In this document: positions 1,809 to 4,278 of the stretch, in pieces
Layout of the letters: every line of letters starts with the position of its first letter
Position numbering within the stretch: the first letter of the stretch is position 1
IMG/VR virus record: IMGVR_UViG_2526164693_000018
DNA: 5,399 bases
Strand: one strand, 5' to 3'
From: a virus
Taxonomy: Duplodnaviria > Heunggongvirae > Uroviricota > Caudoviricetes
Position numbers and translations under genes: made by a program
Notes under the pieces: generated by a model
Told to the model about the DNA's origin: nothing
Database searches by the model: none
The model's input: only the letters and a program-made list of their open reading frames with translations

Positions 1809-2182
1809 AGAGGATAGATGGAGTTTAATGGCCATGAGTATCAAGCGGTCAAAAAGAAGTTCATCTATTCATTGAAAGCATAAGGCCATCTGAGTATATC
1901 CGTAATGATCTGGATATTGTCTATAACATCAATGACCGGACGATAGATATCGGTGAGCAGCGTCCTGTATGGCAGGGTGAGGCAGGTGAAAAAACGTCCT
2001 GCCATCAACAAGAATCAAGTGCATCCGCTCTCTGGACAGATGGAAAATTTATTGGATGCAAAAAGATATGAAATAACACCTGTATAGCACGGAGCTTTCT
2101 CTGACCGATGCACTTGAAGTTGTTAGGGCTGACCCAGCCTGCTGTTTCTTTAGGTAAGAGAAAAGAGATTTAGGAGATGAAA

Positions 2183-2209
2183 GGTCGCAGAGGTGCGGCC
2201 TTTTTTATT
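2183..2209 (+). terminator. Intrinsic terminator-like hairpin: stem ggtcgca / tgcggcc (one G-U pair), loop gagg, followed by T6
   Basis: 7-bp stem at 2183-2189 and 2194-2200, then tttttt at 2201-2206. Plus-strand orientation, about 375 nt downstream of the cI stop. Confidence 0.6.
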
Positions 2210-2248
2210 GAGAGTGGATCTTGAACGGAAATTCTCAAGACTTGAGTC

Positions 2249-2277
2249 TTGCATGCAAATCAATTCCTGGATAAACT
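2249..2277 (+). promoter_or_regulatory. Candidate sigma70 promoter for the 173-aa ORF (-35 ttgcat 2249-2254, 17-nt spacer, -10 taaact 2272-2277)
   Basis: Hexamers with canonical spacing about 33 nt upstream of the ORF start, overlapped and preceded by dyad-symmetric motifs (ctcaagacttgag 2234-2246, ttgcatgcaa 2249-2258). Confidence 0.35.
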
Positions 2278-2309
2278 CGATCTGAGTCAATAACTTAGAG
2301 AGAGAGCAA

Positions 2310-2831
2310 ATGGCAAAGTCAAACGTTAGCGTGCAGGCATTCAAGGACTTCCTTGAAGAGCTTATGTCGCTGAACATAATGAAGGAGGCCACCGCTCGAA
2401 ATTTAAAAAACTCATCCGCTCGCCTCTTAACGGTAGTCCAAGAAGAGGAAATGGGTGATGTTACTCAGCTTGATGTGAATGAGCTTGCCGAGCGATACAT
2501 CAACGCAACTGAGCCGAAGCCTAGCGACAGCAGCATTACTGCATATAAAAGCCGCATGGAAAGTGCAATCAAAAAGTTTGTAGCTTTCCAGTCTGGTGAA
2601 GAAATCCCATACACTCCGATTGACAAAGAATCCAGTGAGGAAAAAGATTTGACTGGCGAACCAACAAAAGTCGAAGGCAAGGCTAATGCACTTCATACCT
2701 ATGATCTTCCAGTAGTTCTTCGACCTGAATCAGGGGTTACAGTAACGATTAAAGGCATTCCTAACGATATCACAAACGAAGAAGCCGAACGCATCTCTTC
2801 AATTCTGAAGGTTTACGTTCGGCCTCAATAA
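2310..2831 (+). CDS. Hypothetical protein (173 aa), acidic, no recognised domain; occupies the position of rexA/rexB
   Basis: Longest ORF in the non-lambda segment. Purine-rich stretch gagagagag at 2297-2305 precedes the ATG at 2310. Hydrophilic, net acidic by my count (about 29 D/E against 21 K/R), no obvious transmembrane segment. A promoter-like element lies upstream and a terminator downstream. Confidence 0.6.
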   Translation: MAKSNVSVQAFKDFLEELMSLNIMKEATARNLKNSSARLLTVVQEEEMGDVTQLDVNELAERYINATEPKPSDSSITAYKSRMESAIKKFVAFQSGEEIPYTPIDKESSEEKDLTGEPTKVEGKANALHTYDLPVVLRPESGVTVTIKGIPNDITNEEAERISSILKVYVRPQ

Positions 2832-3004
2832 TGCAAAAGCATTCAGCACAATGTCCAACTCCCCAGTCCGACATTGATGCTGTTTAACCAGAGCCTCCAA
2901 AAGGAGCCCTTGTTAAGGTACACAATATTTGCGATGTAACCTTAGCGCGTCTGGTACATTTTTTCAAGCGGTTGTAGGGCTGCCGCCAATATGAGAAAAC
3001 ACAG

Positions 3005-3127
3005 ATGTCTACATACAATTTGAATGACCAATTCGATCGAGAAGTTCATGTGAATGCCTATGAACGGATAAGGCATGGAAATCTTGAACATGTGTGTGAG
3101 CATTATCGCTCAAGGCCACACCGCTAA
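3005..3127 (+). CDS. Candidate small ORF (40 aa, MSTYNLNDQFDREVHVNAYERIRHGNLEHVCEHYRSRPHR), speculative
   Basis: ATG at 3005, stop taa at 3125-3127, ending 6 nt before a strong intrinsic terminator. Only a weak Shine-Dalgarno (gaga at 2993-2996). Below the length cutoff of the ORF track. The region could instead be a 3'UTR or sRNA. Confidence 0.25.
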   Translation: MSTYNLNDQFDREVHVNAYERIRHGNLEHVCEHYRSRPHR

Positions 3128-3132
3128 TCATC

Positions 3133-3161
3133 AACCCGGCCTCCATGCCGGGTTTTCTTTT
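3133..3161 (+). terminator. Strong intrinsic terminator: stem aacccggc / gccgggtt, loop ctccat, followed by ttctttt
   Basis: 8-bp GC-rich perfect stem (3133-3140 and 3147-3154) with a T-rich tail on the plus strand. The reverse-strand tail is less U-rich, so it is mainly unidirectional. Confidence 0.75.
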
Positions 3162-3341
3162 CCTCTCGCCCAAAAAAACACATAACCAATTGTATTTATT
3201 GGAAAATAAATAGATACAACTCACTAAACAACGCAATTCTGATCTCTCCTTACATCGCCGAGGCAATACACCCACGCTAAAAAACAATACTATTAAATAC
3301 AAAGCGTTGTAAAAAAACGCCCCGTTTTAGAACAAATTGTA

Positions 3342-3370
3342 TTGACCAAGTGAAGTACATATCGTACTAT
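3342..3370 (+). promoter_or_regulatory. Candidate pL-equivalent promoter (-35 ttgacc 3342-3347, 17-nt spacer, -10 tactat 3365-3370)
   Basis: Good -35 and moderate -10 with 17-bp spacing, about 45 nt upstream of a boxA-like element and 190 nt upstream of the N-like gene. A 5-bp-arm dyad agtac-N5-gtact (3354-3368) overlaps the spacer and -10. No lambda-type 17-bp OL operators are visible. Confidence 0.4.
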
Positions 3371-3559: not shown

Positions 3560-3832
3560 ATGTCCAGAAAAACAGAATTTAAAGGCACCGCAGCTTCTCG
3601 CCGTAGAGCTCGTCGCGCAAACCTGCAAAGTCAGGAGGCGATTAGCTCCGACAAACTACACAGGCCAACCCCATCACGAGTGGTCTTACAATGCAAACGC
3701 AAACCAGCAATGAGAGCAGAAGTAATAACACTGACAACGTTGACCAGAAAATATGAAGGCTCAACTTGTCTTCCAAATGTAGCTCTTTACGCGGCAGGCT
3801 ACCGTAAATCCAAACAACTGACAGCAAGATGA
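3560..3832 (+). CDS. N: N-family transcription antiterminator (90 aa), P22 gp24 / phi21 N-like rather than lambda N
   Basis: Start chosen at the internal ATG 3560, preceded by gggagg at 3549-3554 (5-nt spacer). N-terminal arginine-rich motif GTAASRRRARRANLQ, typical of N-protein ARMs. The C-terminus LPNVALYAAGYRKSKQLTAR resembles the P22 gene 24 product as I recall it. Lies downstream of the candidate pL and nutL. Confidence 0.75.
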   Translation: MSRKTEFKGTAASRRRARRANLQSQEAISSDKLHRPTPSRVVLQCKRKPAMRAEVITLTTLTRKYEGSTCLPNVALYAAGYRKSKQLTAR

Positions 3833-3890: not shown

Positions 3891-4142
3891 ATGGAATTTC
3901 ATGAAAGTGCGATTTGTGATTTTCGCGCTAACGCAAATTCAGTAAAACCACAGCCAATTGCAGTTCTTTTTAAAACAATGGGTGCGTGGGCTGTTTTATG
4001 CTTCGCCGCTGACGACACTGACGCAAGAATGGCAATAGGACAAGAGATGGAGATGGACCCGACAAACGATGAATTCATAATTTATGGCGCTCCATCTAAT
4101 TACTTACTTGATACCTGCAACATTTACAACAAGGCTGCCTGA
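3891..4142 (+). CDS. Hypothetical protein (83 aa) in the position occupied by ral in lambda
   Basis: ORF with Shine-Dalgarno gaggtg at 3879-3884, 6 nt before the ATG at 3891. No similarity to lambda Ral that I can recognise except the C-terminal NKAA. Confidence 0.6.
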   Translation: MEFHESAICDFRANANSVKPQPIAVLFKTMGAWAVLCFAADDTDARMAIGQEMEMDPTNDEFIIYGAPSNYLLDTCNIYNKAA

Positions 4143-4278
4143 TGGTGGCCTTTATTTTTGGCATAAACAACAGAATAAACACAGCACTGTGTATTCATTC
4201 CAACGAGTGAATACACGGAGCAATGTCGCTCGTAACTAAACAGGAGCCGACTTGTTCTGATTATTGGAAATCTTCTTT

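Follow-up and report, generated by a model that had tools for sequence, protein, structure and literature searches.

The 330 bp at positions 2832-3161 of a 5,399-nucleotide stretch of Caudoviricetes DNA (IMG/VR record IMGVR_UViG_2526164693_000018; the whole stretch is referred to below as the window) almost certainly carry a real gene, H0092 (3005-3127, plus strand), predicted to encode a hydrophilic peptide of 40 amino acids (aa) that is under strong purifying selection. Together with the 173-aa gene lying upstream, ECs1184, and the structured, Hfq-bound leader that separates the two, this gene very probably makes up a two-gene moron, in the immunity region of a Shiga toxin (Stx) phage of the VT2-Sakai (Sp5) type. 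The ECs1184/H0092 pair may act like toxin and keeper, and the explanation as a whole, i.e. a selected gene in a two-gene moron plus a mechanism in which ECs1184 restrains a small effector, is given a probability of roughly 0.4. Clinically, Sp5 is the Stx2a prophage of greatest importance, and the locus, which forms part of its immunity region, is expressed in lysogens. Three names are already attached to it, namely the coding sequence H0092, the candidate small RNA (sRNA) EcOnc20 and the reportedly translated open reading frame (ORF) XECs114, none of which is found in current RefSeq. On comparative evidence, these three records describe one and the same selected 40-aa gene, whose structured leader is bound by Hfq, and the XECs114 frame as published seems to be wrong.

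A selected 40-aa gene

H0092 starts with an ATG and encodes MSTYNLNDQFDREVHVNAYERIRHGNLEHVCEHYRSRPHR, which contains 5 His, 6 Arg, 4 Glu and a single Cys. The list of ORFs thus agrees with the original prediction, made from the sequence of the window alone, of a His/Arg/Glu-rich ORF with one Cys that stops just before a hairpin, the stop codon ending at 3127 and the hairpin beginning at 3133. The 330 bp are 100% identical in VT2-Sakai (Sp5), Stx1 and Stx2-II phages, YYZ-2008, Nil2 and others, and such perfect copies are present in 46 phage records and in 234 of 5426 complete E. coli genomes. Diverged copies of the gene were found in Salmonella phage Oslo, Salmonella prophages, Cronobacter, Yersinia, Pseudescherichia and a metagenomic contig (individual homologous loci are designated below by L and a number). 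The frame is intact in 11 loci, which represent only seven distinct cassette sequences, and codon analysis was carried out on four representative ones.

The Nei-Gojobori ratio of non-synonymous to synonymous substitution rates (dN/dS) of H0092 is 0.06 when the window is compared with either Oslo or L007, and ranges from 0.06 to 0.12 in those comparisons that allow dS to be estimated (against L008, synonymous sites have reached saturation). Among the four representatives, variable columns number 11, 6 and 29 at the first, second and third codon positions, respectively, the peptide core VHVNAYER[IV]R.GNLEHVCEHYRSRPH is invariant among homologues, and an AGG to CGA change retains Arg. Insertions respect the frame as well, both the 9-nt insertion seen in L007 and the 8-nt insertion at the stop codon in Oslo and others, which adds a Trp. 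A conservation and synonymous-substitution analysis of this kind had been proposed as a check on the 40-aa frame, and its outcome, a dN/dS of ~0.06 with the frame kept across homologues, speaks in favour of that frame. The low dN/dS, the frame-preserving indels, the invariant core and the existence of a wider protein family (discussed below) are the reasons why H0092 is regarded as a real gene.

The evidence that the locus is expressed comes entirely from the literature, published positions on NC_002695.1 being converted by subtraction (window position = 1258720 - NC_002695.1 position), a conversion that was confirmed with the sequence of XECs114 and with the distance between AsxR and stx2B. 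XECs114 is a 36-aa ORF in another frame (3075-3185, plus strand), located here by its sequence as given in PMC5597208, for which RNA values of 452, 807 and 234 and footprint values of 134.6, 88 and 2.6 reads per kilobase per million (RPKM) were reported in three growth conditions, with a ribosome coverage value (RCV) of 0.01-0.30 (Hücker et al., 2017; PMC5597208). The authors' own ratio is 0.63, and one classifier calls the ORF 'pseudo' (PMC5597208). ECs1182 and ECs1183 are not listed in the supplements of Hücker et al. (2017). XECs114 does not behave as a gene in homologous loci: its start codon is ACG in L008, premature stops occur in L007, L015 and L008, its C-terminus is unconserved and it runs through the terminator. 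Because the XECs114 frame decays in this way, the 40-aa frame would offer a better explanation of the footprints.

EcOnc20 is an Hfq-CRAC peak listed in Table S2 of Tree et al. (2014), where it figures as an orphan peak passing in 4 replicates; its position (NC_002695.1 1255628-1255753, minus strand) corresponds to 2967-3092 on the plus strand of the window. The peak spans part of the leader and the 5' two-thirds of H0092, covering the translation-initiation region. No Northern blot is listed for EcOnc20, and a 2021 review gives Hfq-CRAC as the sole evidence for it and its target as not known. Published data show that the locus is transcribed and ribosome-footprinted in uninduced lysogens, and that the leader and the 5' part of the ORF crosslink to Hfq.

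A mobile two-gene cassette

BLAST comparison of the window with homologous loci returned one shared block of ~930 bp (2237-3163), with a right boundary at 3156-3163; in the Salmonella and Serratia loci, homology extends left to 2181-2182 and takes in the preceding terminator. The block consists, in this order, of a palindrome with a promoter, ECs1184 (2310-2831, plus strand), the 173-nt structured leader, H0092 and a terminator. In Sp5-type Stx phages it is inserted between the cI terminator and oL/pL, a slot that is held by rexAB in lambda. Among the homologous loci, the S24-type cI repressors that precede it are of at least four kinds, other morons sometimes intervening, and in Pseudescherichia it follows a Q-type antiterminator. 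H0092 accompanies the 173-aa gene in 11 of the 16 loci, across cI types and in the post-Q position (a search of genome contigs with the 173-aa protein found one locus only). Because the same block recurs behind different cI types and Q, the cassette is, judged from its sequence, a mobile moron with a candidate promoter and a terminator of its own, maintained as the same unit in unrelated phage contexts.

The candidate promoter (2249-2276, plus strand; -35 TTGCAT, -10 ATAAAC) was read from the alignment, homologues displaying TTGCTT-17-TAGAAT at this position, and was not listed by a consensus promoter scan of the window. Its -35 is overlapped by a perfect palindrome, AAGACTTGAGTCTT (2237-2250), which sequence conservation marks as a candidate operator: it is the sole match in the window when up to two mismatches are allowed, and it is kept with a 1-2-nt centre in Oslo, L007, L008 and L009. 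A second copy of the palindrome near H0092 was not found in the window.

The cassette ends in an intrinsic terminator (3133-3163, plus strand), in which a G+C-rich stem-loop is directly followed by a U-run. The hairpin (3133-3154) has 8 pairs, 6 of which are G-C, a 6-nt loop and a T-rich tail (TTCTTTTCCT / TTTTCTTTT), with a folding energy of -14.3 kcal/mol (z -4.6 against shuffles), and its stem is kept among homologues while the loop varies. Pattern scan and folding energy both bear out the 8-bp GC-rich hairpin that had been predicted here, but not the claim that it is the strongest terminator of the window, which is surpassed by the oop terminator at 406-433 (-17.2 kcal/mol) and by a hairpin at 2179-2204 (-15.9 kcal/mol). 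In the whole window, 12 terminator-like sites were picked up by the pattern scan, where 5.4 would be expected. In AP000422 (VT2-Sakai), where the 40-aa ORF is already annotated as H0092, the hairpin at 3133-3154 is labelled 'putative rho independent terminator for pRM transcript'. Since it travels with the cassette, we regard it as belonging there and not to the cI transcript as such, which would make it the cassette's own terminator and only secondarily an analogue of lambda timm. It ends the unit 188 nt before the -35 of pL, and may reasonably be taken to insulate the cassette from oL/pL.

The left edge of the cassette is marked by a terminator-like hairpin followed by a T-run after cI (2179-2213, hairpin 2179-2204, plus strand; z -4.1), which probably stops much of the pRM transcript before it reaches the cassette. 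This terminator, whose hairpin is followed by TTTTTTATT, is homologous in the Salmonella and Serratia loci and was missed by the pattern scan.

What follows ECs1184 is not the same everywhere. In Proteus/Morganella, homologues of ECs1184 (~73% identity) precede a leader of ~150 nt, after which come a basic ORF of 57 aa and a terminator; this ORF is strongly selected (proportions of synonymous and non-synonymous differences, pS and pN, of 0.63 and 0.02). In Serratia, the slot holds a 47-aa Cys-rich ORF (CxxC...CxC) with a weak match to a treble-clef zinc finger. These alternative ORFs (L009 3675-3848 and its equivalent in L019, L017 3190-3333) each end a few nt before an intrinsic terminator. 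The slot after ECs1184 is conserved, always holding a small gene under selection, while its occupant is swapped, which looks like effector swapping. Because the occupant differs by lineage and members of the 40-aa family stand alone, ECs1184 and H0092 would be separable modules that are coupled in this lineage. This bears on the original prediction, which had proposed that the 40-aa ORF might be a small protein partner of the 173-aa gene: that it encodes a protein is strongly supported and the two genes do travel together; partnership in the strict sense is possible, but it is weakened by the solitary occurrence of the family and by the different small genes found in the slot of other lineages.

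A single disrupted copy of the cassette was found among the 234 E. coli genomes, in L006 (NZ_CP114132.1, plasmid pNJS001-2), where an IS3-family element has inserted in the leader at ~2963-2968, 37-42 nt before the ATG of H0092. The insertion severs H0092 from the promoter and leaves ECs1184 intact. This prophage copy also has IS1203 in gam. The match H116, which had the appearance of H0092 in a new context, proved to be an IS3 insertion within the same prophage.

A structured leader

The 173-nt spacer between the two genes is better conserved than the synonymous sites of the genes that flank it (80-95% identity in the spacer against 60% at third positions in the comparison with L007), and exceeds the third-position identity of the ORF, which is 45-60% when L007 and L008 are both considered. 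Several hairpins can be drawn in this region, all on the plus strand, and three of them (H1, H2 and H3) are significantly stable. H1 (2781-2826; -20.6 kcal/mol, z -4.7) lies within the last codons of ECs1184, and its pairs are invariant and display no covariation. In every comparison, synonymous divergence is roughly halved in the last ~29 codons of ECs1184 (145-173; 2741-2831) relative to codons 1-100, which is consistent with selection on H1; this low divergence holds in Proteus too, though the downstream region is unrelated there. A minus-strand promoter-like site (2857-2828, TGGACA-18-CATTAT) faces the 3' end of the 173-aa gene over H1 and might drive an antisense RNA.

H2 (2844-2882; -16.6 kcal/mol, z -6.05) has undergone an unusual change in the Salmonella lineage (L005 and L012), in which its top (2853-2878) is inverted, CAACTCCCCAGTCC being replaced by its reverse complement AGACTGGGGAGTTG with the stem intact. 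The inversion is also visible as a reverse-strand BLAST match at 2844-2882, and looks like the signature of a quasi-palindrome template switch. H3 (2887-2955; -22.9 kcal/mol, z -3.3) is a branched hairpin, the outer helix of which has three compensatory pairs in L008. In H4 (2959-2999), TTTTTTCA pairs with TGAGAAAA just upstream of the H0092 start; two pairs covary in the L007/Yersinia lineage, and the energy is not significant against shuffles (z -0.6). H4 could, tentatively, occlude the weak ribosome-binding region of H0092.

Across the seven distinct sequences, 95% of cells in the leader alignment are paired and six pairs are changed on both sides, whereas shuffles give 2.2 (none of 500 reaching this number) and slid controls 0-2. 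Three of the six fall in the outer helix of H3, and the covariation comes from two lineages. The alternative that had been offered at first, a structured 3' untranslated region or an sRNA, therefore survives in part, as conserved hairpins with some covariation and the Hfq site EcOnc20, while the region is coding.

The partner gene ECs1184

The 173-aa gene (also H0093 or Sp5 ORF23) encodes a protein with a core-binding (CB) fold, an acidic disordered linker and a C-terminal beta-beta-alpha module. The four-helix CB fold comes without a catalytic domain and lacks the active-site Tyr of a tyrosine recombinase, ECs1184 being a stand-alone tyrosine-recombinase core-binding-fold protein that would bind DNA. 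Searches of Pfam, NCBIfam and PADLOC returned no significant family for it, the only match being a weak one to Phage_int_SAM_1 (E 0.047). In the acidic linker (2610-2700, codons ~101-130) pN is close to pS (0.4-0.5, in several pairs), whereas the flanking domains are strongly constrained.

In a deletion study of Sp5 early genes (Mondal et al., 2016; PMC5155283), an in-frame deletion of ECs1184 was unobtainable in a K-12(Sp5) lysogen and was called apparently lethal. The authors suggested that ECs1184 is needed for stable lysogeny; their gene list left out small ORFs.

The peptide family and its predicted fold

H0092 matches phrog_21154 (E 5e-8), a family to which PHROG gives no function. A profile search with the peptide retrieved, at E < 1e-3, 95 cluster representatives among 1.84 billion, nearly all of 30-60 aa, which share the motif V-[HYF]-V-x-A-Y-x-R-x-R-x-G-x-x-E-x-V-C-x-H-x-R-S-x-P with V16, Y19, R21, V30 and R35 invariant. 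Members are 'hypothetical' or nameless in every source examined, and a literature search for the peptide sequence found no paper containing it. AlphaFold2, supplied with the family alignment, predicts a four-strand beta-meander (strands 13-16, 19-23, 26-30 and 33-36) with a pLDDT of 78 overall and 83-96 in the core, which for a 40-aa peptide is of moderate confidence. We infer that the peptide would oligomerise or dock onto a partner, because a lone four-strand sheet of this kind has no core.

Distant members stand alone, in varied genomic contexts. In a Rahnella prophage, one lies between Q and the holin genes, another is found inside a defence island where it is flanked by AAA_13 ATPases, HEPN and GmrSD, another lies beside an S24 repressor, ORF6N and GmrSD, and yet another is directly 3' of a ToxN-like gene. 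H0092 belongs to an unnamed family of ~40-aa basic beta-proteins that recur in prophage moron slots and defence islands, a family that is identified here. A 149-aa ToxN-like neighbour in L024 was considered as a relative of ECs1184 and found by comparison to be unrelated. Two larger proteins, P0052 (538 aa) and P0115 (316 aa), were rejected as members of the family, with which they share only an AY..A.RNGWLDEVC.HM segment. They were picked up via a segment of the type AY..R.G.LE.VC.H and are made of ~45-aa repeats (W-T-x-E...EALKY-x-TR-x-EF...AY-x-x-A-x-RNGWLDEVC-x-HM), which probably represent an unrelated helical repeat.

A restrained effector or a harmless accessory?

A mechanism can be outlined in which ECs1184 would bind the palindrome over its own -35 and thereby autoregulate the operon, while the structured, Hfq-bound leader would hold translation of the small protein low, as the RCV of 0.01-0.30 might reflect. 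The small protein, a predicted beta-meander with a conserved Tyr/Arg/His face, would be an effector binding nucleic acid or a partner and would harm the cell when unrestrained, ECs1184 being its repressor and/or antitoxin. Like other genes of the rex slot, the module would help to maintain the prophage or to exclude phages, and the terminator would close the unit before pL. FliZ provides a precedent for a CB-like repressor. If so, ECs1184 would be non-deletable because it restrains a harmful small effector, a testable account of a hitherto unexplained finding, and the model would likewise account for the presence of the IS3 element between ECs1184 and H0092 in L006 (a single case). It also fits effector swapping among lineages and the defence-island contexts of the family. 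This logic of a repressor or antitoxin paired with a toxic small effector is tentative, and would, if true, reveal a new module of small proteins that influences how stable Shiga-toxin prophages are. Its most specific version, in which ECs1184 and H0092 form a novel toxin-antitoxin (TA) or abortive-infection module made of a core-binding-domain antitoxin/autorepressor, a 40-aa beta-meander toxin and an Hfq-bound leader gating translation, is doubtful; were it correct, the peptide family would constitute a new class of small effectors and the module would contribute to holding the Stx2a prophage in its host.

A number of observations weigh against this proposal. In a polynucleotide kinase (PNK) assay ECs1184 was not a convincing RNA binder. 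The failed deletion of ECs1184 is a negative result, and a second early gene, ECs1180, was also non-deletable (Mondal et al., 2016; PMC5155283). A spacer as long as 173 nt is not typical of type II TA pairs. No more than seven distinct sequences make up the evolutionary sample, the ribosome-binding site of H0092 is weak (the best Shine-Dalgarno match is 4/6 at -14), and the published footprints, which cover 3075-3182, were assigned to the XECs114 frame and not to that of H0092. As for the peptide itself, no significant family was returned by Pfam, NCBIfam or PADLOC, Foldseek comparison of the model with the PDB gave nothing below E = 3, and the neutral isoelectric point (pI) of the E. coli member, 6.96, departs from the family median of 10.0. 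In addition, members of the small family often stand alone, and the lack of any obvious protein partner beside them makes strong intrinsic toxicity less likely.

About equally likely is that the small protein is a harmless accessory, such as a small regulator, an exclusion or anti-defence factor or a cofactor of the CB protein, which is merely co-transcribed with ECs1184. The latter would then be non-deletable for another reason, be it derepressed transcription towards oL/pL-N-kil, disturbance of cI or a technical problem; that Mondal et al. give no cause for the failure, and met with the same failure for the unrelated ECs1180, sits well with this. So does the fact that members of the family are found singly in slots of prophages and defence islands, where no candidate antitoxin lies next to them, and so does the nature of the peptide, which is hydrophilic (grand average of hydropathy, GRAVY, -1.40), is devoid of any hydrophobic stretch and matches no TA or defence model. 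However, a harmless accessory leaves unaccounted for both the tight, structured, Hfq-bound leader with its low ribosome occupancy and the single natural disruption, in which H0092 was cut from its promoter and ECs1184 left intact, and derepression is difficult to reconcile with a strong terminator that already blocks read-through to pL.

It is rather unlikely that the product of the locus is instead the Hfq-dependent RNA EcOnc20, as a 3'-derived or independent sRNA ending at the terminator or as a dual-function RNA. The replicated Hfq-CRAC peak, a transcript that would end in a terminator with a U-rich tail, a leader more conserved than the synonymous sites of the ORF and a promoter-like site at 2991-3019 are all in accord with such an RNA. 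Nevertheless, Hfq also binds A-R-N motifs at the Shine-Dalgarno regions of mRNAs, as described by Tree et al. (2014), and an AGAAAA is present at 2994, upstream of the H0092 start; the promoter-like site at 2991-3019 would start transcription inside H0092, neither a Northern blot nor a target has been reported, and an Rfam scan (E ≤ 1) found nothing within 2832-3161, including the 40-aa ORF and its leader. Of the features expected of an sRNA, Hfq binding in vivo is thus documented in the literature, whereas a discrete short non-coding transcript with its own 5' end is not. A purely non-coding role is excluded by the dN/dS of ~0.06 and the frame-preserving indels, and it is, like the use of any other frame, extremely improbable.

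That the translated gene is XECs114 or an opposite-strand ORF (53 aa, 2942-3103; 88-97 aa, 3009-3302) is highly improbable too, in spite of the RIBOseq signal assigned to the former and of the minus-strand ORFs annotated in YYZ-2008, phi330 and Stx1/Stx2-II phages, since XECs114 decays in homologues as described above, the 53-aa frame is broken by a stop in L008 and heavily changed elsewhere, and the 97-aa frame (3009-3302), shorter versions of which are annotated in some records, crosses the right edge of homology at ~3163. The statement that this stretch holds no credible ORF of 60 aa or more accordingly stands.

Relationship to known systems

A close parallel is lambda rexA-rexB-timm, which, like the locus described here, lies between cI and oL/pL, is expressed in lysogens and consists of two genes with an intrinsic terminator just before pL. 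However, the cassette proteins bear no sequence or domain similarity to RexA or RexB, and the cassette differs in having its own candidate promoter and operator, in the separate terminator that follows cI, and in being mobile and also found after Q. In this it resembles lambdoid morons, extra transcription units with their own promoter and terminator (Juhala et al., 2000, as cited in PMC4104026), in that it is found between conserved phage genes in different phages and at two classic hot spots. Unlike typical morons, it has two cistrons, a long conserved structured leader and a distal small gene that is swapped by lineage.

Resemblance to type II TA systems is found in the architecture of the upstream gene (a predicted DNA-binding domain, a disordered acidic region and a small C-terminal module), in the palindrome over the promoter, in the reported non-deletability of the upstream gene and in the small size of the distal product. 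In contrast to these systems, where genes usually overlap, the cistrons are separated by a structured spacer, neither protein matches TA or defence models, and the putative toxin would be only 40 aa long with relatives that are often partnerless. The locus does not fit type I TA, in which a small hydrophobic membrane peptide is paired with an antisense RNA: the peptide is not hydrophobic, and the only hint of an antisense RNA is the weak minus-strand promoter-like site at 2857-2828.

E. coli FliZ, MrpR/YopR of SPbeta and SroF of phi3T are core-binding-fold regulators without recombinase activity, with which ECs1184, itself located in a prophage regulatory region, shares the CB fold; ECs1184 consists of the CB domain alone plus a beta-beta-alpha tail, whereas MrpR and SroF keep the whole recombinase fold. 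Finally, EcOnc20 can be compared with the Hfq-bound sRNAs of enterohaemorrhagic E. coli (AsxR, AgvB and StxS) and with the dual-function SgrS/SgrT, as it comes from the same Hfq-CRAC experiment and the same prophage and has a terminator end. AsxR and AgvB are, however, non-coding RNAs of 51-60 nt from the PR' moron site, while the EcOnc20 locus encodes a selected peptide and its Hfq peak lies over the translation-initiation region.

Annotation of the locus and other features of the window

Apart from AP000422, phage records have either opposite-strand ORFs or no annotation at this locus, and none of the 234 E. coli genomes carrying it has a PGAP/RefSeq annotation at the 40-aa ORF. The window, a lambdoid immunity region of the VT2-Sakai (Sp5) type, runs opposite to the usual lambda map: cII and cro lie on the minus strand and cI (1095-1808) on the plus strand, pL is near 3342-3370 and N is at 3560-3832; ea10, cIII, kil and gam are also present. 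The sole match in an Rfam scan of the whole window (E ≤ 1) is the lambda cIII thermoregulator RF01804 (4753-4811, 88.5 bits). A lambda-like oop RNA region lies at 361-433, with its terminator at 406-433. The start codon of cI is inconsistent among records, which give the protein a length of 217 aa (AP000422 and the Sakai RefSeq), 231 aa (other RefSeq records) or 237 aa (longest ORF). ECs1180 (Sp5 ORF21) is an 83-aa ORF that follows N (3891-4142, plus strand), and its stop codon is overlapped by a terminator-like hairpin at 4131-4152.

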